48,835 nucleotides of DNA, taken from a virus. Its lineage: Duplodnaviria; Heunggongvirae; Uroviricota; Caudoviricetes. Below the pieces are notes generated by a model. That model was not told where the DNA came from. It saw nothing but the letters and a program-made list of their open reading frames with translations, and ran no database searches. Each line of letters begins with the position of its first letter. Positions within the stretch are counted from its first letter, which is position 1. A program made the translations under genes and the position numbers. The stretch covers positions 1-48,835 of IMG/VR virus record IMGVR_UViG_2740892051_000004, one strand, 5' to 3'. Of this stretch, positions 1 through 29,424 are shown piece by piece.

Positions 1-228
1 ATGAGCTTATTGCCTCGGGAAAACGCACCCCAAAAAAGATATAGACTTCTGAGAATATCAGAAGTGATTAATTTGACTGGCTTACCCAAGTCAACAATTT
101 ATCTAAAGATAAAGAATGATGAATTTCCGAACCAAGTTTCTATCGGTTCTCGTTCTGTTGCATGGGTGGAGCATGAAGTTAATGAATGGATAGAGAAGAA
201 TATTCTCAATAGAAAATTAAACTCCTAA
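1..228 (+). CDS. alpA: AlpA-family DNA-binding regulator (prophage CP4-57 AlpA-like)
   Basis: 75 aa; HTH core 'RLLRISEVINLTGLPKSTIY' and C-terminal 'VAWVEHEVNEWI' match the AlpA/Vis/Xis small winged-helix pattern. Confidence 0.75.
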   Translation: MSLLPRENAPQKRYRLLRISEVINLTGLPKSTIYLKIKNDEFPNQVSIGSRSVAWVEHEVNEWIEKNILNRKLNS

Positions 229-245
229 ATTGAGGTGGCAAATAT

Positions 246-1106
246 ATGGTTGACAATGTTTTTAAGAAGAAATTGGCATCAATTAAGAACGAACATGTGT
301 CGGTGTTAGATAGTTACAAAGTAAGATCATTTAAAGAGACTCATAGCGACACGGCCTGTATTGTGCGTATTATTGAAATATATTCACTGAATAAGCTGCG
401 AGCTAAAGGTGAAAAGCTGTATTCACTTACGGGGTTAACAGTACCTGATACGGAAACTGTGGCGAATGAGATCAACCTGCTCCTGAGCCGTTATGCCCAG
501 TTGTGTCGTCAGGAAGAGGAAGAGTTATCTTTCCGGCAGCGTGAAGTGACAAATGCGGAAGTTGCATGGAAAAGCACATTCTCAAAAAACGGCGTCAGTA
601 GCATTGCTGAAGCCAAAACGAATAAAATGGGGCATGCTGAACGAGCGGATGCTGAACGGTATTACCATCTGGCTGTTTCCCGGTTGAATGAACAACATAG
701 TCGATTGAGCACGATCAAGCTTTTGCCGGGAGTACTGGCCGATGAAGGAAACTACATTGGGAAGGGAATCGATAAGCGTTTACTGAATATATTTCCTCAA
801 TCCGGCCAGATCCCTGCTGATTTTATTTCTGTATTTAATGACAGTGACGTTGTCCGTGATATTAAATTTATTACTGATGCACTCAAGTCTTTATCTGATT
901 CCGTGAGTGAAATTATTAGTCGTTGTAGCGTTCCAACTGATCGTTATGTATTAAATAACGGTGGAATGGCAAGAGCTATGGCTTACAGGGAGTACTATCG
1001 AGCAGATAATTATGTATTACGTTCAGTCGTAAGTGACCGGGATTATGTTGAGCATGTAATGAAATACAATCTGGTTACTGAGTACAAAAATAAAATCTTT
1101 TCTTAA
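246..1106 (+). CDS. hypothetical protein; possibly capsid scaffold (GpO-like by position and size only)
   Basis: 286 aa ORF directly upstream of capsid-like gene in P2 O-N order; no recognisable motif. Confidence 0.45.
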   Translation: MVDNVFKKKLASIKNEHVSVLDSYKVRSFKETHSDTACIVRIIEIYSLNKLRAKGEKLYSLTGLTVPDTETVANEINLLLSRYAQLCRQEEEELSFRQREVTNAEVAWKSTFSKNGVSSIAEAKTNKMGHAERADAERYYHLAVSRLNEQHSRLSTIKLLPGVLADEGNYIGKGIDKRLLNIFPQSGQIPADFISVFNDSDVVRDIKFITDALKSLSDSVSEIISRCSVPTDRYVLNNGGMARAMAYREYYRADNYVLRSVVSDRDYVEHVMKYNLVTEYKNKIFS

Positions 1107-1128
1107 ATACTTAAAAAGGTGAAAAACT

Positions 1129-2133
1129 ATGTATGCCTTCAAAACTGAAAGGCCGGACGCAGCACGTCGTTATCATAATAAATTCGTCACTGGCACTAAC
1201 TATCAGGAAGAATCAAACAGACGCTTTGCATTAAGCGAACCTACTGAAAATATACTGCGTACCTCAATTCTGGAATCCGGGTGGCTTATTAAAAATATTA
1301 CCCTACGTGATGTTAACGCCGTGTCAGGTAATGCCGTCAATATTGGTGCCAGTGAACTGTATACCGGACGTGTGGATGGTGGCCGTTTCCACAAAAAAAT
1401 GGCAATCAATGGTACGGAGTTCTTTCTGACAGAGACGGATACCTGCGCCCGGATCAGCTATTCCGATATGTCTCATATTTACCATACCGGCGTGCCGGAT
1501 GAGTTTGAGAAAACGGTTGAGAGCTTTTTTGCCCAGGCATATGCGCTGGACATGCTGCGGGTCGGTTTCAACGGTGTGTCGATTGCAAATACTACAAACC
1601 CGGAAATCAATAAAAAAGGCGAGGATGTCAATATTGGCTGGCATGCACTGGCGAAAGCCTACGGGAACGGAAAGCAAATCATCTCTGAGCCTGTCACTCT
1701 GGGAGAGACTGGCACCTGGAAAAATATTGATGCTCTGGCCAACCATCTGATTACAGAGCTTATTGCTGAGCAGTTTCGTGAAGATCCTCGTCTGGTTGTA
1801 CTGGTTGGGGCAGAGCTGGCAGCACATCAACGCCTGAAGTTATTTAATGCCGCAGACCGCCCGTCTGATGTGAATGCGGCACAGATGGCTACAAGTTCTG
1901 TTGCTGGCCGCTTTGCGTTTATTCCCCCGTTTATGCCGGGTAAGCGTCTGGCAGTAACGACGCTGGATAATCTGCATATTTACACTCAGGCGATAACACG
2001 CTGGTTTCGTGCTGAGTTTGATGATGAAAGCAGTGAATACGTGCATTCCTACCTGCGCAATGAAGGTTATGCACTCGGTGAACCTGAACTGTACGCGGCT
2101 GTTGATGAGTGCACCCTGACGTTTGCGGATTGA
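1129..2133 (+). CDS. putative P2-family major capsid protein (GpN-like)
   Basis: 334 aa; segments 'GFNGV...NIGW...IDALA...DPRLVVLVGAELAAH' resemble recalled P2 GpN conserved blocks; needs HMM confirmation. Confidence 0.5.
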   Translation: MYAFKTERPDAARRYHNKFVTGTNYQEESNRRFALSEPTENILRTSILESGWLIKNITLRDVNAVSGNAVNIGASELYTGRVDGGRFHKKMAINGTEFFLTETDTCARISYSDMSHIYHTGVPDEFEKTVESFFAQAYALDMLRVGFNGVSIANTTNPEINKKGEDVNIGWHALAKAYGNGKQIISEPVTLGETGTWKNIDALANHLITELIAEQFREDPRLVVLVGAELAAHQRLKLFNAADRPSDVNAAQMATSSVAGRFAFIPPFMPGKRLAVTTLDNLHIYTQAITRWFRAEFDDESSEYVHSYLRNEGYALGEPELYAAVDECTLTFAD

Positions 2134-2147
2134 CTTAGCGACAGAAA

Positions 2148-2176
2148 GACCCGCTCAGAGGCGGGTCTCGTTTACA
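2148..2176 (+). terminator. rho-independent terminator after capsid-like gene
   Basis: GACCCGC-tcagag-GCGGGTC hairpin followed by TCGTTT, 15 nt after stop codon. Confidence 0.5.
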
Positions 2177-2271
2177 GCATCAGGAAAAATGAAGAACTAT
2201 TTTTAAGCAGAGGCTTAAGCATGCCAGCGTTAATTAATCCAGGCAATGATCAGTTTTCGGTTATAAATTTC

Positions 2272-2301
2272 TTGCCTCACCAGGAATGCGCGGGATATAG
2301 T
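2272..2301 (+). promoter_or_regulatory. candidate sigma70 promoter (P4 PLE-like) upstream of immunity region
   Basis: TTGCCT-N18-TATAGT upstream of seqA. Confidence 0.3.
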
Positions 2302-2332
2302 TTAAAGGTTGCCGCAAAATCGGCAGCCGGGC

Positions 2333-2356
2333 GTAGGAACCCGTGTTATCTGAAGG
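2333..2356 (+). promoter_or_regulatory. seqA-like target of CI immunity RNA
   Basis: GTAGGAA...TCTGAAGG; both arms exactly complementary to seqB (2510..2531). Confidence 0.5.
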
Positions 2357-2469
2357 CGATACTACACGCGCTAGGCGTGTTTTTTTGTGTCGCAGCTTTG
2401 ACTCACCTAAAATTTATGGTGTGGTGGCTGATTGTATTTTTTTATTTTTTACGCCACATCATCAGAATT

Positions 2470-2545
2470 ATGGTAGTCCAGGCGGGGCAGCTTTCGGGCT
2501 GGCCGGTATCCTTCAGAGCCGGTATTCCTACCCCCGTCTGGGCTA
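2470..2545 (+). ncRNA. P4-type CI immunity RNA (C4 antisense RNA-like) containing seqB; ends approximate
   Basis: seqB core CCTTCAGA-GCCGGTA-TTCCTAC at 2510..2531 is antiparallel-complementary to seqA and seqC; sits in a leader upstream of early ORFs as in P4. Confidence 0.45.
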
Positions 2546-2557
2546 CCACCCATGAGC

Positions 2558-2599
2558 GTAGGAACTCCGGTGGTAGCGTTACCCGCTATCTGAAGGAGG
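2558..2599 (+). promoter_or_regulatory. seqC-like target overlapping ribosome-binding site of first early ORF
   Basis: GTAGGAA...TCTGAAGG repeat of seqA, ending in AGGAGG 9 nt before ATG at 2608. Confidence 0.5.
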
Positions 2600-2607
2600 T
2601 TGCCATT

Positions 2608-2811
2608 ATGGCTACAGTCCCTGCTTTATCTCACCCTGAATTTACCTTTGTCTTTCTGGCTGTCCGCCGTACAGACCGTGATGCCCGTCCACGCCCTGTG
2701 CGTGTAATCGCAGAATGCGAGCATGCTGCACGCCTTAAACTTGCCACTGAATTTATCCTGAGCTTTGCTGCCCGTATCCCTGTGAAAAGAGCCGGGGAGG
2801 TGGTTGCATGA
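2608..2811 (+). CDS. hypothetical small early protein (satellite)
   Basis: 68-codon 3' part of track ORF 2221..2811 starting at internal ATG with AGGAGG RBS; upstream part of that ORF spans the RNA region. Confidence 0.5.
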   Translation: MATVPALSHPEFTFVFLAVRRTDRDARPRPVRVIAECEHAARLKLATEFILSFAARIPVKRAGEVVA

Positions 2812-3044
2812 AATCCATGAATTTTAAGCAAGGCTGCATATTGAGTGAACAGGGGGAGAGTCGTCTGTTACGGGCGGCACTGGCCAGTGAGTTTCTTGCA
2901 GAGGTCTTGTCCGTGCCCACAGTGAATGGAGCGAGAACTGTTTCAGCGGAAGGCGCTGCGGCTTTAGTGGCCTGTATTGCCGAACAACTGGATGGCGTTG
3001 TTAAGGAAACCAGCACAATTAAGGGAGTGATGCGCGATGAATAA
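2808..3044 (+). CDS. hypothetical protein (satellite early operon)
   Basis: 78 aa ORF, 4-nt overlap with flanking ORFs (translational coupling). Confidence 0.5.
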   Translation: MKSMNFKQGCILSEQGESRLLRAALASEFLAEVLSVPTVNGARTVSAEGAAALVACIAEQLDGVVKETSTIKGVMRDE

Positions 3045-3447
3045 TAATCAAAATTTAAAGGCGCATGCTTTACGAACAGCAGTCTTACGCTACTACATTG
3101 CTGATGCATTCATTTCCTTAATGGTGCGTGTTCATAATGAACCTGTTTATATTGAAGATGGCGAACGAATAGAACTCTCCCACGAAAAAGTGGTGAGTAA
3201 TATTATTTACCATATTGAAATGCCGTGGGTGAATGAGTTTGGGGCTGATGCTGGTTGCATACTGGCCGCAGAGAAACTGGAAAAAATGCTTAAACCAGGC
3301 TTTATGTCAGAAAATATTCGCCTGTCAGTTTTTGGTGTCACAGAGATGCGTGAGGTTTACCGGGATATTATTTTCGGAGCACCTGATGGCGAACTACCCG
3401 AAGGTTTTGAATTTGTGAAGCCGGAAGGTCAGGAGGTGCTGCTGTGA
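3037..3447 (+). CDS. hypothetical protein upstream of primase (position of P4 eps/orf151)
   Basis: 136 aa ORF overlapping primase start by 4 nt. Confidence 0.55.
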   Translation: MNNNQNLKAHALRTAVLRYYIADAFISLMVRVHNEPVYIEDGERIELSHEKVVSNIIYHIEMPWVNEFGADAGCILAAEKLEKMLKPGFMSENIRLSVFGVTEMREVYRDIIFGAPDGELPEGFEFVKPEGQEVLL

Positions 3448-6131
3448 AAACACCGTCTGTATCCACGATTTCCGGAGCTGCAATTGGGCGCTGGCCTTAT
3501 ATCCTGTCAGCATTAGGTATTAAAGTACCGTCCGCAGGACATCATGGGGCTTGCCCTGCCTGTGGTGGAAAAGATCGTTTTCGACTGGACGATAAAGCGG
3601 GGCGAGGGACGTGGTTTTGTAATCAGTGCGGTCATGGCGATGGTCTTGATCTGGTTCGTCTGGTGACAGGAAGAAAGATAAAAGAAGTCGCCGGGATGGT
3701 ATCTGAGGCGCTTGCATTACCAGAAATACAGGAGAAGCCCGCATTGCCAGCCAGGAAAAAGGCCGCAGGAAAAGAAGCGGGCGCGGAGCGATATACCAGA
3801 CTCAGACAGCAGTCCTGCAATGGTGAGCCGGTCTATCTGACAAATAAGAGCTTACACGGGTATTCACTTCCCTTGCTGTCACAGCCTTTGAATCTGGCCG
3901 GAATAACATTTTCCACCGGTTCATTACTGCTGCCTTTGACGGATATTTCCGGGAATATTACTGGTGGCCAGCTTATCAATCCTGACGGGGATAAAAGTCT
4001 GCTGCCCGGTAGCCAGCTGTCTGGCGCATTCATTGCCCTGACCGATATACCCGCTGAAACACCTGAACAGGTGATTATCACTGAGGGTTTTGCCACGGCG
4101 CTTACCGTCAGTCTGCTGACTGAAGGATGGATCGTGGCGGCTGTCGCTGCCACCAATTTACTGAAGGTGACGGAGCAGATCCGAAAACGCTGGCCGGAAA
4201 CCCGGATCATTCTGGCCGGAGATAATGATCTGGCTGACGGCAAAGAAAACACCGGGCGTATTCAGGCAGAGAAAGCCGCCAAAGCGGTGGATGGCTGGGT
4301 AACGCTCCCTCCGGTACGCCATAAGGCTGACTGGGATGATTATCGGCAGGAAGTGGGGAAAGAACGGGCGAGAGATGCCTTTCGTGAAGAAATGACGCTG
4401 CATGGCAAAGGGCAGACCCGTTTACCAGAAGGGTTCCGGCTGACAAAAGAATATTTGTGGTACGACAAGCTGGTTAATAAGTCTGATGGTGATACAGAGA
4501 TACGTAATATCAAAATTTGCAGTCCGTTGCGGGTGACGGCAATCACCAGTGATGCTGATGGAAGTAATTACGGGCGTTTGCTGGAATGGGAAGATACCAA
4601 CGGAAACAGCCGTAAATGGGCAATGCCGATGGAGATGCTGGGCGGTAGCGGGGAAGAACTGCGCCGCGTTCTGCTGGTTAACGGGCTTTCTTACATCAAC
4701 ATTAACGGCATGGCCAGAGCATTCCTGATGGAATATATCTCGCTGTGTAAACCGGACAGAAAAGTAACCTGTGTGAATAAAACTGGCTGGCACGGCGGGG
4801 TTTACGTTCTCCAGGATGAAGTGATAGGGCGCGAAGCCCAGTCAGTCATCTTACAAACATCGAGTGTGCAGGGGCGTGATTTTCGTGTCAGCGGCACATC
4901 AGAGGGCTGGCGTGAAAATATAGGCCGTTATTGCATAAAGAATGCCCGTCTTGCCTTTGCGGTGAGTCTGGCATTTGCTGCCCCCCTTCTGAAACTGGTT
5001 GGTATCGGCGGTGGAGGTTATCACCTCAAAGGGGAATCCACAGACGGTAAAACCACGACGATGAAAGTGGCTGCATCAGTATGTGGTGGAACAGATTTCT
5101 GGCATACGTGGCGGGCGACGGGGAATGCCTTAGAAGGAACGGCGAGCCGCCGCAATGATGCCACGCTGATGCTGGATGAAATCCGGGAGGTTGACGGCAG
5201 GGAGGCGGGAAATATCGCTTATATGCTGGCTAACGGGCAGGGCAAAGCCAGAGCCAGAACAGATGGTTCGGTAAGGGAAACCAACCGCTGGAATCTGTTG
5301 TTTCTGTCTACCGGGGAACTGTCACTGGTAGAGCATGCGGCAAGCGCCGGGGAACGTACGTATGCCGGGGTTGAGGTCAGAATGATCCAGATCCCAAGCG
5401 ATTCGGGCAAGTATGGCGTGTTTGAAGAACTTCATGGCTTCAGTAGCGGGAAAACCCTGGCTGAGCATCTTGAGCAGCACGTAGCGCATTATCATGGTGC
5501 ACCATTCCGCGACTGGCTGTATTGCCTGACCGCTGATCTGCCGGAACTGACCAGTCAGGCGAAAGCCTTATTGAAAGAGTATACCCGAAGGCTGACGCCG
5601 GAAAATGCCGGGAATCAGGTTGGCCGGGCTGTTACCCGTTTTGCTCTGGTTGCGATGGCCGGGGAGCTGGCCACAAAAGCGGGCATCACAGGATGGCCGG
5701 AGGGAGAGGCCTTTCGTGCCGCTCAAAGCTGTCTGGCTGCATGGATGGCTGACCGGGGCCATACAGCTAATCAGGAAGATAAAGCGGCACTTGAACAGGT
5801 TCGGGACTTCATGACGCGTAATCAGTTCAGTCGGTTTGCTGACTGGAATGACGACAGGAACCGGCCTGTTTCAATGATGGGATTCAGAAAAGTCGATAAA
5901 GGAGACAACGTGACAGAGCCGGTTGTGACGTTCTACGTTCTCCCGTCAGGCTGGAAGGAGATCTGTAAGGGATTTGACTCGCGTAAGGTGGCCAGGTTGT
6001 GTGTGGACGCGGGCTGGCTGAAACCCGGTGAAGATGGCCGGACGCAAAACAGCATTCGCCTGCCAGAAATAGGGCTTAAACGTGTGTACCAGTTCAATAC
6101 ACAGGTACTGGGAAGCGCTGAACCTGAGTGA
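3444..6131 (+). CDS. P4 alpha-type primase-helicase
   Basis: 895 aa; N-terminal zinc ribbon CPACGG...CNQCGH, TOPRIM-like 'ITEGF...ILAGDNDL', Walker A 'GESTDGKTT'. Confidence 0.9.
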   Translation: MKTPSVSTISGAAIGRWPYILSALGIKVPSAGHHGACPACGGKDRFRLDDKAGRGTWFCNQCGHGDGLDLVRLVTGRKIKEVAGMVSEALALPEIQEKPALPARKKAAGKEAGAERYTRLRQQSCNGEPVYLTNKSLHGYSLPLLSQPLNLAGITFSTGSLLLPLTDISGNITGGQLINPDGDKSLLPGSQLSGAFIALTDIPAETPEQVIITEGFATALTVSLLTEGWIVAAVAATNLLKVTEQIRKRWPETRIILAGDNDLADGKENTGRIQAEKAAKAVDGWVTLPPVRHKADWDDYRQEVGKERARDAFREEMTLHGKGQTRLPEGFRLTKEYLWYDKLVNKSDGDTEIRNIKICSPLRVTAITSDADGSNYGRLLEWEDTNGNSRKWAMPMEMLGGSGEELRRVLLVNGLSYININGMARAFLMEYISLCKPDRKVTCVNKTGWHGGVYVLQDEVIGREAQSVILQTSSVQGRDFRVSGTSEGWRENIGRYCIKNARLAFAVSLAFAAPLLKLVGIGGGGYHLKGESTDGKTTTMKVAASVCGGTDFWHTWRATGNALEGTASRRNDATLMLDEIREVDGREAGNIAYMLANGQGKARARTDGSVRETNRWNLLFLSTGELSLVEHAASAGERTYAGVEVRMIQIPSDSGKYGVFEELHGFSSGKTLAEHLEQHVAHYHGAPFRDWLYCLTADLPELTSQAKALLKEYTRRLTPENAGNQVGRAVTRFALVAMAGELATKAGITGWPEGEAFRAAQSCLAAWMADRGHTANQEDKAALEQVRDFMTRNQFSRFADWNDDRNRPVSMMGFRKVDKGDNVTEPVVTFYVLPSGWKEICKGFDSRKVARLCVDAGWLKPGEDGRTQNSIRLPEIGLKRVYQFNTQVLGSAEPE

Positions 6132-6156
6132 TTATCGCGTGAGTCTTATTTTTATG

Positions 6157-6347
6157 AGGTAACACTGGTAACAGAGGTAACACCCGTTACTGATGCGGTT
6201 CTTCAGTGTTACCAGTCAAAAATACTGACTGGTAACAGAGGTAACAAAAAATGGTGTGTTACCACGCGTTACCTCTTGATTTTGCTAACTGGTAACAGAT
6301 TAAATCCTTTTAAATCAATAGCGTTACACGTGTTACCAGTGTTACAC
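6157..6347 (+). repeat. iteron array (satellite ori/crr-like)
   Basis: More than 12 copies of GGTAACA / TGTTACC in both orientations immediately after primase stop. Confidence 0.6.
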
Positions 6348-24832: not shown

Positions 24833-25481
24833 TGGCAGCAAATACCGAAATATTTGGGTAGTTGGCGATCTGCACGGATGCTACACGAACCTGATGAAAA
24901 AACTGGAGACAATTGGATTCGACACCAAAAAAGACCTGCTTATCTCGGTTGGCGATTTGGTCGATCGCGGTACAGAGAACGTCGAATGCCTGGAATTAAT
25001 CACATTCCCCTGGTTCAGAGCTGTACGTGGAAACCATGAGCAAATGATGATTGATGGCTTATCAGAGCGCGGAAACGTCAATCACTGGATGCTTAATGGC
25101 GGTGGCTGGTTCTTTAATCTCAATTACGACAAAGAAATTCTGGCTAAAGCTCTTGCCCATAAAGCAGAAGAACTTCCGTTAATCATCGAACTGGTGAGCA
25201 AAGATAAAAAATACGTCATCTGCCACGCCGATTATCCCTGTGACGAATACGAGTTTGGAAAGCCAGTTGATCATCAGCAGGTAATCTGGAACCGCGAACG
25301 AATCAGCAACTCACAAGACGGGATCGTGAAAGAAATCAAAGGCGCGGACACGTTCATCTTTGGTCATACGCCAGCAGTGAAACCACTCAAGTTTGCCAAC
25401 CAGATGTATATCGATACCGGCGCAGTGTTCTGCGGAAACCTCACATTGATTCAGGTACAGGGAGAAGGCGCATGGGCATAA
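24810..25481 (+). CDS. serine/threonine protein phosphatase (lambda NinI / PP-lambda type)
   Basis: Metallophosphatase motifs 'GDLHG', 'GDLVDRG', 'RGNHE'; start at internal Met 'MRYYERI'. Confidence 0.8.
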
Positions 25482-25990
25482 GAGAACTAAACCTCACCAA
25501 AGAGCAGCACGAGTGGCTGAATGGCTGGCTTGAACTGTGGGGCGCATGGGTTTATTCAGGTCGTCTGGAAAAGCGCATGAGCAGCGTAATAGCGAAGTTC
25601 ATGGAGAGCGTAGAGCCGGGAAGAGTTATGACAAGGCCAATGTGCAATGATGATGATGGAATGTTGATTTCTCAGGTCGTCGATTCCGTCATGTACATTG
25701 ACAAAAAAGCCTTTGGCATCCTCCTCAGCTACTACGCTCATGGTTCATCTAAGCGAGCAATTGCATCCTACTATCACGCGACTGCAAAGCCACGCAAGAT
25801 GTGTGGACGTGGTGGCGAGAGATGGAGAAAACCTTCACTGGCAACCTGTAGAAACGAAATTGACGACATCCTGAAAGCGTCGTTATTTGTTTTGTACCAG
25901 CCAATGCAAAATGCTTTTAAAATGCGTAAACGTGTTGAGAAAGTTAAGCATGTTGCTGTTAAAAGCCTTGACATGCAATTATCCATTTAG
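25472..25990 (+). CDS. Q: late antiterminator Q
   Basis: 172 aa; 'LELWGAW' and Cys/Asp-rich '[10 protein letters not shown]' typical of Q-family; followed by promoter, terminator and lysis genes. Confidence 0.7.
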
Positions 25991-26053: not shown

Positions 26054-26128
26054 GGGTCAGTCGTATAAAGGTCATTACGGAAGGCTGTTAACCTTCTTAT
26101 CGTGGTTCGAGTCCACGCTGTCCCGCCA
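26054..26128 (+). tRNA. tRNA, anticodon GTT (Asn), hand-folded
   Basis: Acceptor stem with one mismatch, D-loop GG, anticodon loop CTGTTAA, T-arm CGTGG-TTCGAGT-CCACG, 3' CCA encoded. Confidence 0.55.
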
Positions 26129-26133
26129 AACAT

Positions 26134-26209
26134 GCTGGTTTAGCTCCAATGGTAGAGCAGTCGCCTTGTAAGCGAATGGGTAGCGGTTCAAGTCCGTTAA
26201 CCAGCACCA
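26134..26209 (+). tRNA. tRNA-Thr (anticodon TGT), hand-folded
   Basis: Acceptor GCTGGTT/AACCAGC, D-arm GCTC-CAATGGT-AGAGC, anticodon loop CTTGTAA, T-loop TTCAAGT, CCA encoded. Confidence 0.65.
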
Positions 26210-26775: not shown

Positions 26776-27235
26776 TCAACGTAAGGCGTTCCTCGATATG
26801 CTGGCGTGGTCAGAGGGAACTGATAACGGACGGCAGAAAACCAGAAATCATGGTTATGACGTCATTGTAGGAGGAGAGCTATTCACTGATTACTCCGATC
26901 ACCCTCGCAAACTTGTCACGCTAAACCCAAAGCTCAAATCAACAGCCGCCGGACGTTACCAGCTTCTTTCACGTTGGTGGGATGCCTACCGCAAGCAACT
27001 TGGCCTGAAAGACTTCTCTCCGAAAAGCCAGGACGCTGTGGCATTGCAACAGATTAAAGAGCGTGGCGCTTTACCGATGATTGATCGCGGTGATATCCGT
27101 CAGGCAATCGACCGTTGCAGCAATATCTGGGCTTCACTGCCGGGCGCTGGTTATGGTCAGTTCGAGCATAAGGCTGACAGCCTGATTGCAAAATTCAAAG
27201 AAGCTGGCGGAACGGTAAGAGAGATTGAGGCATGA
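26759..27235 (+). CDS. R: endolysin R (lytic transglycosylase)
   Basis: 158 aa near-identical to lambda R. Confidence 0.9.
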
Positions 27236-27699
27236 GCAGAGTAACCGCGATTATCTCCGCTCTGATTATCTGCATCATCGTCTGCCTGTCGTGGGCTGTT
27301 AATCATTACCGTGATAACGCCATCGCCTACAAAGAACAGCGAGATAAAAAAGTCAGTGAGCTGAAGCAGGCGACCGCCACCATTACTGACATGCAGCAAC
27401 GCCAGCGTGCTGCTGATGCACTCGATGCTAAATACACGAAGGAGTTAGCTGATGCGAAAGCTGAAAATGATGCTCTTCGGCGCAAGCTTGATAATGGTGG
27501 CAGGGTGCTCGTCAAAGGAAAATGCCCTGTGCCATCCTCAGCCGAAACCTCCGGCGCCTCCGGCATGGGCAATGATGCCACCGTCGAACTCTCTCCAGTT
27601 GCTGGACGAAACGTTCTCGGTGTCCGGGACGGAATTATCCGCGACCAAACAGCACTGAGAACGCTTCAGGAATACATCAGGACGCAATGCCTTCGATGA
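27232..27699 (+). CDS. Rz: i-spanin Rz
   Basis: N-terminal TM '[18 protein letters not shown]', coiled-coil body, lambda Rz-like. Confidence 0.85.
27452..27658 (+). CDS. Rz1: o-spanin Rz1 lipoprotein embedded in Rz (+1 frame)
   Basis: Signal/lipobox 'LIMVAGCSS', Pro-rich mature region; nested as in lambda. Confidence 0.6.
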
Positions 27700-28042
27700 T
27701 AGCGATAATTTTACTCATCATCCTTCACATCTGGCTCTGTAGACAGGGTGATGATCACTTCTGGAGTGAATCCAGATTAAACATCTCATTGCTGATGCTT
27801 GATATTGAGCATCTGGCGCGCAGTAAGGGGCTGCGTTGAGATAAGAGCCAGTCATCACAAACACCAGGATTTAGCCTCGCATTTGCGGGGCTTTTTTACA
27901 TCTGCAGTAAACCGCGCATCGCAGCGCGTAACAATCCCGAGTCTTTCAGAAAGCTGAGCCTGAGAACTGCCGTATATGGTGGCGACCATCTCGGGGCGGC
28001 TTTTCTGTGCGAACAGGCTCATCTTTCTAAAAGGTAAACGCT

Positions 28043-28528
28043 ATGAATAACTTTGTTGAAATTACCTCAAGAATTGGTCGCATGTACCAAGATTTTCTTA
28101 TAAGTGGAAAGGGGTCTGGCGACATCATAGAGGAAATTGACAAGCTAAGTGCAGAGCTGAGAAGGAATGGGTGTGTTAATTCTATCTTTTTTGAAACTTT
28201 GCTAAAGCAAGGCTTCATGTTTGACATGATTAATTACAACAAAGTCGCACCCAGTGCTTCGCAAAAATCATATGTGTACGTTCTGCATGCTGAAGATAGT
28301 GGGCTAACAAAAATAGGGTTTAGTCGCAGGGTTAATAAACGGATTTCAGAGATATCTCGCATGAGTGGTGGGAAGCTAAATCTAATTGCAAAGATTCCGG
28401 CCGATAGAGAGCTTGAAACCAAATTGCACCAAAAATATTACAACTATAGGTCGCACGGGGAGTGGTTTAGTCTCAATCGTTGTCATTTGAAAGAGCTAAA
28501 AGAAATGCCTGGTAACGAACTGAAATAA
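28043..28528 (+). CDS. T5orf172 / GIY-YIG-like domain protein (AT-rich moron)
   Basis: 'YVYVLHAEDSGLTKIGFSRRVNKRISE...KLHQKYYNYRSHGEWFSL' GIY-YIG-like signature; AT-rich relative to flanks. Confidence 0.55.
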   Translation: MNNFVEITSRIGRMYQDFLISGKGSGDIIEEIDKLSAELRRNGCVNSIFFETLLKQGFMFDMINYNKVAPSASQKSYVYVLHAEDSGLTKIGFSRRVNKRISEISRMSGGKLNLIAKIPADRELETKLHQKYYNYRSHGEWFSLNRCHLKELKEMPGNELK

Positions 28529-28706
28529 TCCCCGGACTCACCAATTAACGGCAGTACAGCGAAACAACCCAAGCCAGTAAGTGGGGAAATAACACTGGCA
28601 GCCACTGAAAGATGAACCTCCTGCCTTATGGCAAAAAAGATTCTTTGTGGTGGCGGACTGATGGAAAGACATCCTAATCAAGCAACCACTCTACAGGGTC
28701 ATAATT

Positions 28707-29078
28707 ATGAACGACCAGCAAATCGAAAAAGAAATCGTTGAGAAAGGCAAAACGGCACCGCGCGTTACGCCAGACCATATCGAAGGAATTATTGCTCAGG
28801 AGGCATATTTCACAGCAGAGGATGGTGCCTTTGGCAAAGCCATAAAAGCGAAACATACTGGCGGAGAGGTAAACTACCAGCCGCACGAATCACTTTCTCT
28901 GCTGACGTTCTGCGTCCTGGTGCTGCGCAACGGCTTCACCGTCACCGGAGAGAGTGCCTGTGCAAGTCCGGAAAATTTTGATGCAGAAATTGGTCGGAAG
29001 ATTGCCCGGCAGAATGCTGTAAACAAAATCTGGATGCTTGAAGGTTACTTGCTGAAGCAGAAGCTAAGCGAACAGTAG
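28707..29078 (+). CDS. hypothetical protein
   Basis: 123 aa ORF. Confidence 0.5.
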   Translation: MNDQQIEKEIVEKGKTAPRVTPDHIEGIIAQEAYFTAEDGAFGKAIKAKHTGGEVNYQPHESLSLLTFCVLVLRNGFTVTGESACASPENFDAEIGRKIARQNAVNKIWMLEGYLLKQKLSEQ

Positions 29079-29181
29079 TTATTACAAAAGCCATTCCCTA
29101 CAGAGTGGCTTTGATAATGGCTTATACCCTGCACGGGATAACTTAACTGATATCCCTTTTAACGGATAAACGGAGCCAACA

Positions 29182-29424
29182 ATGGCAGAGATTATTCCCA
29201 TGACTGAAGAACAGAAATTCCAGTTAGAGATTTACAAACTGGTCATGAACCAGAACGCAGCCGCAGAGGAAGCATTTCAATTCATCGGCACTGACGAGCT
29301 GAAGCTTGAGCTATTCAAAATTCACTTCCAGTCAGGCGGCGCTAATTCAGATATCACGATCCGCACATTCGAAGCGGTGCGTAAATCGAAGGAAGCGTTA
29401 GACCTGTTCACTACCGGAGCATAA
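29182..29424 (+). CDS. hypothetical protein
   Basis: 80 aa ORF upstream of terminase. Confidence 0.45.
   Translation: MAEIIPMTEEQKFQLEIYKLVMNQNAAAEEAFQFIGTDELKLELFKIHFQSGGANSDITIRTFEAVRKSKEALDLFTTGA

Follow-up and report, generated by a model that had tools for sequence, protein, structure and literature searches.

Which function does a small gene serve that stands between the lysis genes and the packaging genes of a temperate phage? The question is raised by IMG/VR virus record IMGVR_UViG_2740892051_000004, whose 48,835 nucleotides (nt) were analyzed as a whole—hereafter the window—and which is a CUS-3/Sf6-type P22-like (Lederbergvirus) prophage. Between Rz and the terminase module, at positions 28043..28528 of the + strand, it bears a gene for a protein of 161 amino acids (aa). 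The initial annotation, drawn from the sequence alone, described this gene as an AT-rich, recently acquired moron with a GIY-YIG-like C-terminal half. A lone open reading frame (ORF) is what we find at this place as well: it begins with ATG and lies within the segment 27900–28540. The reading we favor, and in which our confidence is about even, is that of a late-expressed accessory endonuclease engaged in conflict between mobile elements, with an hkbL-like module giving partner or target recognition.

The gene was correctly spotted, but as an accessory gene of a well-studied group of phages it had been annotated before. Proteins of 100% identity are gp68 of Salmonella phage epsilon34, gp64 of g341c, and a protein of phage NM-3; gene, family, and annotation are already known as epsilon34 gp68 (2008), as PHROG 4284, and under the RefSeq name of epsilon34 gp68 and g341c gp64, “GIY-YIG nuclease family protein.” The paper on the epsilon34 genome contains no discussion of gene 68 (PMC2629481). 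Three aspects were not found described elsewhere: the hkbL-like origin of the N-terminal domain, the start-to-stop replacement of cassettes behind a leader common to Rha and KilA-N genes, and the strong conservation of this leader.

Two domains in 161 amino acids

The assignment of the C-terminal half to the GIY-YIG domains, for which the initial annotation had proposed a profile search as a check, is secure because of profile matches, predicted fold, and conserved catalytic residues. In Pfam, whose cut-offs are the curated gathering scores, both MUG113 (PF13455; aa 90–154, E=4.2e-13, 50.1 bits against a cut-off of 22.3) and T5orf172 (PF10544; aa 77–154, E=1.1e-9, 39.2 bits against 20) score above their cut-offs. 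Both families belong to the GIY-YIG clan. In PHROGs, phrog_4284—function label unknown—matches the protein over its full length (E=1e-75). DUF4041 is not present in the 161-aa protein.

The fold points the same way. AlphaFold2, run on the whole protein with a 36-sequence alignment, yields a mean predicted local distance difference test score (pLDDT) of 95 and a model of three long helices, a short linker, and a compact alpha/beta domain. As whole-chain fold searches were swamped by helical bundles, aa 70–161 were modeled alone (pLDDT 95.2, predicted template modeling score 0.85). A fold search with this C-terminal half returns GIY-YIG nucleases as its top five structural matches, and the half bears the three-stranded sheet flanked by helices that characterizes the GIY-YIG alpha/beta fold.

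On the level of single residues, Y79, K90, G92, R100, E125, H129, E140, W141, and F142 do not vary among 66 relatives of 26–65% identity, in which I91 is at least 90% conserved. When the profile is compared with PDB chains, the Y..KIG..R block comes to lie on the GIY/YIG/Arg block of UPF0213 (1zg2) and T4 EndoII (2wsh), in matches that are marginal only (E=0.2–0.5), though at the correct motifs. According to this alignment, Lys90 occupies the position of the usual second Tyr. For ICP1 Odn, the catalytic Glu is needed for cleavage in vitro and in vivo, as seen for the exchange E180A (PMC8263062), and the activity of the GIY-YIG domain of SNIPE is likewise Glu-dependent (E414A; bioRxiv 10.1101/2025.11.03.685801). 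By analogy, the 161-aa protein would be expected to cleave DNA. The literature on MUG113 yielded nothing functional. The Ssn family of single-stranded DNA GIY-YIG nucleases was considered as a lead and dropped; its paper names neither MUG113 nor T5orf172.

The conserved core bears on the alternative that the protein is a non-catalytic DNA-binding or regulatory protein, equivalent to Rha and KilA-N and using T5orf172 as a DNA-binding module. T5orf172 was indeed first predicted to bind DNA from its co-occurrence with Bro-N and KilA-N domains, and CapR, a transcriptional repressor that the PLE satellite encodes, goes back to the DNA-binding domain of T5orf172 homing endonucleases (PMC8096241). 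The basic C-terminal domain and the slot and leader that the gene has in common with those of Rha and KilA-N proteins fit such a role, too. However, Tyr, Arg, and Glu of the catalytic core are invariant in the 66 diverged relatives, which is unexpected for domesticated non-catalytic derivatives, and Odn, the sole T5orf172 enzyme assayed, is an active nuclease. We therefore regard a purely regulatory protein as very unlikely.

The N-terminal half belongs to a different family. Its helices span aa 3–21, 25–41, and 47–68 in the AlphaFold2 model; aa 5–59 are homologous to hkbL of phage HK620, a standalone protein of 85 aa (BLASTP E=9e-11), and phrog_875 matches aa 2–60 separately (E=1.4e-6). A profile search recovers 138 hkbL-type homologues, almost all of them standalone proteins of 75–110 aa in enterobacterial prophages, HK97 p61 included. 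The domain is acidic (isoelectric point (pI) 5.2, net charge −1), as is the helical module of hkbL. In hkbL, a basic C-terminal tail (pI 11) follows, in whose place the 161-aa protein bears its basic nuclease domain (pI 9.6). Given the hkbL homology of aa 5–59 and the C-terminal nuclease domain, the protein is most aptly seen as a T5orf172 nuclease to which an hkbL-like module is fused. This architecture is rare: an exhaustive search recovers 5,717 proteins with a related C-terminal domain, and only ∼15 cluster representatives have both domains.

The hkbL gene itself has a constant partner. In all eight contexts read and in HK620, it lies directly 3′ of a KilA-N gene, overlapping it by 4 nt in five of these nine contexts and standing 2 nt apart in the other four. 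The KilA-N partner ends in an ORF11CD3 or P63C tail, and in the contexts read the pair is always found between Rz and terminase, across phages with many different lysis and packaging modules (HK620, locus L003:2343–3094; loci L018–L025, around 2270–3264). KilA-N and hkbL hence look like an unrecognized two-gene module. Phage FSL SP-016 has a similar layout by gene lengths only, with a 258-nt gene that overlaps the preceding 672-nt gene.

A fusion of this kind has a precedent among T5orf172 nucleases, which get their specificity from an attached domain that is at times borrowed from a competitor; in Odn, the borrowed domain is RepA_N, as in PLE (PMC8263062; PMC10448857). Odn (Gp88), the origin-directed nuclease of ICP1, shares the plan of an N-terminal targeting domain and a C-terminal T5orf172 domain with the 161-aa protein, for whose N-terminal domain a targeting role is proposed. 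Both proteins keep the catalytic Arg and Glu, both are without the His/Tyr of the first helix, and both are phage-encoded and accessory. A further parallel is seen in the homology of the Odn N-terminal domain to a protein of a competing element. They differ in that the N-terminal domain of the 161-aa protein is an acidic hkbL-like bundle, and in that Odn stems from a lytic vibriophage and is a nuclease of shown activity, whereas the 161-aa protein is encoded among the late genes of a temperate lambdoid phage and its activity is predicted.

A swap slot between lysis and packaging genes

The initial annotation had suggested looking for the gene at this position in related prophages. There, near-identical flanks hold other cassettes or nothing; the gene is hence accessory, can be exchanged as a cassette, and does not belong to the core. 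Both a lack of GIY-YIG-family matches and conservation of the gene as part of the phage core had been named as findings that would speak against the annotation; both were looked at, and neither was found.

The left flank consists of gene 65, a terminator, and a 146-nt leader, and its homology reaches the start codon (window position 28047 by pairwise mapping); the leader is 98.6% identical to that of the Rha phage Sf101 and 82% to that of the KilA-N phage HK620. Homology restarts at the stop codon (28526–28539) and extends to 28673, and this right flank is 96–99% identical in epsilon34, Sf101, HK620, Huey, Sf6, and FREC5, irrespective of the content of the slot. The exchange of cassettes thus spans exactly from start codon to stop codon.

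Elsewhere, the slot between these 96–99% identical flanks is occupied by Rha, by KilA-N together with hkbL, or by a Tad2-like gene, or it is empty—as in Sf6. The cassettes of HK620, hkbK (KilA-N and ORF11CD3) with hkbL, and of P22 and Sf101, Rha (orf201), share the slot, the leader up to the start codon, and the right flank with the window; unlike the 161-aa protein, hkbK and Rha combine domains of DNA-binding type (KilA-N, Phage_pRha) with an ORF11CD3 tail and bear no nuclease domain, and hkbL remains a separate protein. In Huey (locus L004 2222–2722), the occupant is a 166-aa protein with a Tad2-like (Thoeris anti-defense 2, PF11195) domain (E=1.7e-24); here, the left flank stops at the terminator and the leader is missing. 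The junction between lysis and packaging genes likely also carries anti-defense cargo. In E. coli genomes with a 96–98% identical lysis-to-terminase backbone, the slot holds a GIY-YIG, a KilA-N, or a Rha gene.

Epsilon34 gene 68 is the closest counterpart. Like g341c gene 64, it encodes the identical protein, with 99.6% identical DNA, and it lies at the same place after Rz, gene 67, and the terminator, with the same leader and right flank; the lysis and packaging modules of epsilon34 differ from those of the window, and it is without the gp49/66 gene. Across the window, epsilon34, and E. coli FREC5, the cassette is 99.6–100% identical, while Rz is only ∼78% identical in its alignable part, which supports horizontal exchange. 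The full cassette is found in ∼58 of 5,426 complete E. coli genomes, every time on the chromosome. It is sporadic, being present in 5 of 268 phage records that match the flanks and in ∼58 of at least 225 E. coli genomes; such frequencies of slot occupants are lower bounds, as the E. coli matches were swamped by ubiquitous Rz homologues. Two E. coli records labeled “DH5alpha” (NZ_CP026085.1 and NZ_CM135829.1; 4.83 Mb; hits H76 and H78) carry the cassette at 99.8% identity, which is unexpected for a K-12 derivative and suggests mislabeled strains or an acquired prophage.

More distant alleles, of ∼60% aa identity, stand at the same place between Rz and terminase in other lambdoid phages, whose holin, endolysin, and terminase modules are quite different. 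The association of the family with the slot is therefore old. Of the recent acquisition that had been proposed from base composition, it is the spread of this particular allele that holds, and not a recent arrival of the family. Homologues of 37–40% identity are found in other accessory regions; one of 37% identity adjoins KilA-N/P63C, Bro-N, and Arc genes.

The AT-rich island that had been noted is genuine but moderate. The nuclease ORF has a GC content of 0.391, against a window mean of 0.471, and a GC content at third codon positions (GC3) of 0.401; it ranks at the 6th percentile of 486-nt windows (mean 0.471, standard deviation 0.049). The neighboring late genes have GC contents of 0.45–0.53 and GC3 values of 0.48–0.56, and the ORF is the only low-GC block of the late operon.

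Distribution and junctions raise the alternative of a free-standing homing endonuclease, which would cut a rival allele—Rha, KilA-N, or empty—in a co-infecting or resident phage, whereupon repair through the flanks copies the cassette. T5orf172 genes have been proposed as homing endonucleases in ICP1-like and T5-like phages, with a terminase gene in 35% of their neighborhoods (PMC10448857). Those genes (Barth, Dunham and Seed 2023) belong to the same nuclease subfamily and, like the cassette, are sporadic and stand between essential late genes near terminase. The sporadic occurrence of the cassette, its near-identity across Salmonella and E. coli phages whose Rz has diverged, its clean junctions with homology arms of 97–99% identity, and the occasional decayed or fused copies (P0005, P0014, P0004) would fit homing. 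However, the Rha and KilA-N cassettes have the same clean junctions and flanks, so that ordinary recombination in the flanks suffices, and no signal of co-conversion is seen: the flanks of two carriers are no more alike than those of a carrier and a Rha phage. Nor does the protein bear a recognizable sequence-specific DNA-binding domain. Pfam detects none, and with only two Cys and an acidic helical bundle there is no zinc finger, whereas 87% of surveyed T5orf172 homing endonucleases carry zinc-finger CapR, DUF723, or DUF4397 domains (PMC10448857). The protein is also only 161 aa long, and its slot hosts non-nuclease cassettes as well. Furthermore, the alleles of 60% identity adjoin unrelated terminase and lysis modules and thus have no neighboring target gene in common, and most copies of the cassette are intact. 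On balance, homing appears unlikely, although it deserves to be kept in mind.

The decayed derivatives, which come from public assemblies, are of three kinds: one of the proteins P0005, P0014, and P0004 fuses nuclease residues 1–107 to DUF2560, one fuses an Rz fragment to the last 40 nuclease residues, and one has a frameshifted C terminus. The cassette thus decays occasionally.

Leader, expression, and proposed role

The leader in front of the start codon is the element that the Rha, KilA-N, and T5orf172 cassettes have in common. It is present in 145 phage records, from E. coli, Salmonella, Klebsiella, Enterobacter, Hafnia, and Providencia and including Shiga toxin (Stx) phages, and mostly precedes Rha-type genes. 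In Sf101 (Rha) and at locus L007 (T5orf172 allele), it is 98–99% identical where Rz is 69–78% identical; at L007, the values are 97.8% for the leader, 69% for Rz, and 67% for the T5orf172 allele. As copies of the HK620 type carry frame-breaking indels of 1 nt, a coding function of the leader is ruled out. A 55-aa ORF across the leader on the − strand (27855..28022) was likewise rejected as a gene, as it has no Pfam match and is broken by indels.

Instead, the leader is predicted to fold as a long imperfect hairpin (27941–28035), whose stem base pairs with the Shine–Dalgarno sequence AAAGG at 28030–28034. Folding z-scores are −2.7 for the + strand and −4.1 for the − strand. For ten diverse copies, RNAalifold keeps 33 pairs, of which seven with one-sided changes stay G-U/U-G, two show compensatory changes, and four have one broken or gapped sequence. 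Possible roles of the leader are that of a switch common to these cassettes, acting on translation or via RNase III, and that of a linker for recombination. A permissive Rfam search of 27600–29300 gave no match. P22 rha, the archetype of the genes behind this leader, is described as a late-operon gene that harms the phage when misregulated in the absence of integration host factor (IHF) (PMC4936722). That the leader carries the IHF site reported for rha is unsupported: the IHF consensus WATCAANNNNTTR, with up to one mismatch, is not found in 27840–28060, and its genome-wide counts equal chance.

All genes from Q through portal lie on the + strand, and a rho-independent terminator-like hairpin with a T-run stands 5′ of the cassette; a terminator is annotated at the same place in epsilon34, and one just 5′ of the leader in HK639. 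A consensus scan, which weak or non-canonical promoters could escape, finds no sigma-70-like promoter in 27893–28042, and there is no + strand terminator in 28529–28706, 3′ of the nuclease gene. Since a terminator precedes it and a hairpin covers its ribosome-binding site, the occupant of the slot would, as we infer, not be expressed in the lysogen and would appear late, its translation being restrained—an argument built entirely from consensus scans and structure prediction. Of the designation as a moron, the absence from similar phages and the deviant base composition stand. However, with neither a promoter nor a terminator of its own found by the scan, with an inherited leader, and with a position in the late operon, the reading as a moron in the strict sense is not supported.

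These features also bear on the alternative that the gene is a true moron, a prophage-expressed defense or superinfection-exclusion nuclease that degrades incoming foreign DNA. Its foreign base composition would fit, as would the Tad2-like anti-defense gene in the slot of Huey, which shows that conflict genes make use of the slot, and the fact that GIY-YIG defense nucleases such as SNIPE and PD-T4-3 are known. The gene, however, is part of a Q-dependent late operon, the consensus scan gives neither a promoter-like site between terminator and start codon nor a terminator on its 3′ side, and its ribosome-binding site is paired in a conserved predicted hairpin. The defense association that the initial annotation had given for T5orf172-type domains comes down to a weak candidate match in PADLOC-DB v2, PDC-S57 (E=4e-4, 18 bits), which would speak for it; the only other match there is the candidate PDC-M64B (E=0.03), no established system is matched, and NCBIfam has no match for the 161-aa protein. 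In contrast to SNIPE, which combines a transmembrane segment, DUF4041, and a GIY-YIG domain, and to PD-T4-3, the protein bears no transmembrane segment or other membrane anchor (maximal Kyte–Doolittle value 0.84), no DUF4041, and no modified-base sensor; it has no sensor or partner gene and no evident mechanism by which a free cytoplasmic nuclease would tell self from non-self, and its gene lies in a phage late operon, not in a host defense island. A defense moron is, in our view, distinctly unlikely.

Around the observed gene, fold, conserved residues, slot, junctions, leader, and distribution, the late accessory endonuclease that we favor may be pictured as follows. A non-essential, horizontally exchanged cassette of the late operon would encode a two-domain enzyme, with the acidic hkbL-like three-helix module joined to a basic T5orf172 GIY-YIG domain whose core—Tyr79, Lys90, Arg100, and Glu140—is intact. 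This cassette would have replaced a Rha or KilA-N/hkbL cassette from start to stop while retaining its leader. In the lysogen, it would be kept silent by the terminator ahead of it and by the hairpin that covers the ribosome-binding site, and the protein would be made late in lytic growth, upon readthrough by Q-modified polymerase. The enzyme would cut DNA, and its N-terminal module might supply targeting or partner binding, as the borrowed RepA_N does for ICP1 Odn. It would then serve in conflict with competing phages or other mobile elements and not in the making of virions.

Several points weigh against this account. Catalysis, timing of expression, and target of the 161-aa protein are inferred, and its sequence is without the first-helix His/Tyr common in GIY-YIG enzymes. 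The N-terminal domain is acidic and has no recognizable DNA-binding fold; fold searches match it to generic helical bundles only. The regulatory role of the hairpin is likewise deduced, the copies of the leader are too conserved for much covariation, and the lack of a promoter comes from a simple consensus scan. Furthermore, the co-occupants Rha and KilA-N are DNA-binding proteins and not nucleases; the slot itself is hence no sign of nuclease biology.

A farther-reaching version, which we consider rather improbable, would see the junction as a dedicated slot for interchangeable, potentially toxic “conflict” cassettes. Rha, KilA-N with hkbL, the hkbL::T5orf172 fusion, and the Tad2-like gene would be such cassettes. 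A single conserved cis-regulatory RNA leader, with its hairpin masking the ribosome-binding site, would control the first three, and the gene would encode an Odn-like chimera directed via its captured hkbL module against rival phages or satellites that use KilA-N/hkbL.

As a very small T5orf172 nuclease in tractable P22-like phages, the 161-aa protein makes a convenient model for a subfamily that has so far been studied only in ICP1. The kinship of its N-terminal module with hkbL connects two orphan families and suggests how the nuclease might locate its target, and late accessory genes that exclude one another may share one switch in their highly conserved hairpin leader. If the protein acts against competing phages or satellites, warfare of the Odn type would reach beyond lytic vibriophages to temperate enterobacterial phages.

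Surrounding genes and feature coordinates

Table 1. Features at and around the slot, in window coordinates
Feature	Position	Strand	Remarks
Q	25472..25990	+	
Rz	27232..27699	+	Pfam Phage_lysis E=5e-29; Rz1 embedded within
Gene-65-like ORF, 50 aa	27687..27839	+	Part of the conserved left flank of the slot
Rho-independent terminator-like hairpin and T-run	27873..27898	+	8-pair stem (6 G-C), loop of 4, TTTTTT
Conserved non-coding leader, 146 nt	27897..28042	+	Common to Rha, KilA-N, and T5orf172 cassettes
T5orf172/MUG113-type GIY-YIG nuclease gene, 161 aa	28043..28528	+	Pfam, phrog_4284, identity to epsilon34 gp68
N-terminal acidic three-helix bundle, aa 1–68	28043..28246	+	Homology to HK620 hkbL
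C-terminal GIY-YIG (T5orf172) domain, aa 77–161	28271..28525	+	
Invariant codons	Y79 28277, K90 28310, G92 28316, R100 28340, E125 28415, H129 28427, E140-W141-F142 28460–28468		
I91 codon	28313		
Conserved right flank of the slot	28529..28673	+	96–99% identity across phages
Phage_gp49_66 family gene, 123 aa	28707..29078	+	Pfam PF13876 E=9e-35

On the 5′ side of the nuclease ORF, the order of genes is Q, two tRNA genes, holin, endolysin, Rz/Rz1, and the 50-aa gene-65-like ORF (Table 1); on its 3′ side follow the gp49/66-family gene, a DUF2560 gene, the small terminase (phrog_309, E=1e-67), the large terminase, and portal. The gene-65-like ORF, annotated as gene 65 in Sf6 and as gene 67 in epsilon34, is 97–99% identical in epsilon34, Sf101, HK620, Huey, Sf6, and FREC5 and has no match in a Pfam search. 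The tRNA genes that separate Q from the holin gene, tRNA-Asn(GTT) and tRNA-Thr(TGT), lie at 26054–26209 (+); Sf6 and phage 21 show the same arrangement.

Directly after the cassette and outside of it, a second segment of variable presence spans 28674..29078 (+). It is present in Sf6 and Huey (∼79% identity) and missing from epsilon34, Sf101, HK620, and FREC5. The Huey homologue of the gp49/66 gene carries the annotation “anti-CRISPR protein”; a relation of the gp49/66 protein to the Tad2-like protein of Huey was considered and dropped, as no relationship is detectable (BLASTP E=0.09).

At the left end of the window, positions 1–6200 are 100% identical to E. coli chromosomal segments, whose annotations comprise a DUF927 protein, a “P2 family phage major capsid protein,” an Icd-like cell-division inhibitor, and a helix-turn-helix regulator. 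This part resembles a P4-like satellite, or else some other small element integrated next to the P22-like prophage.

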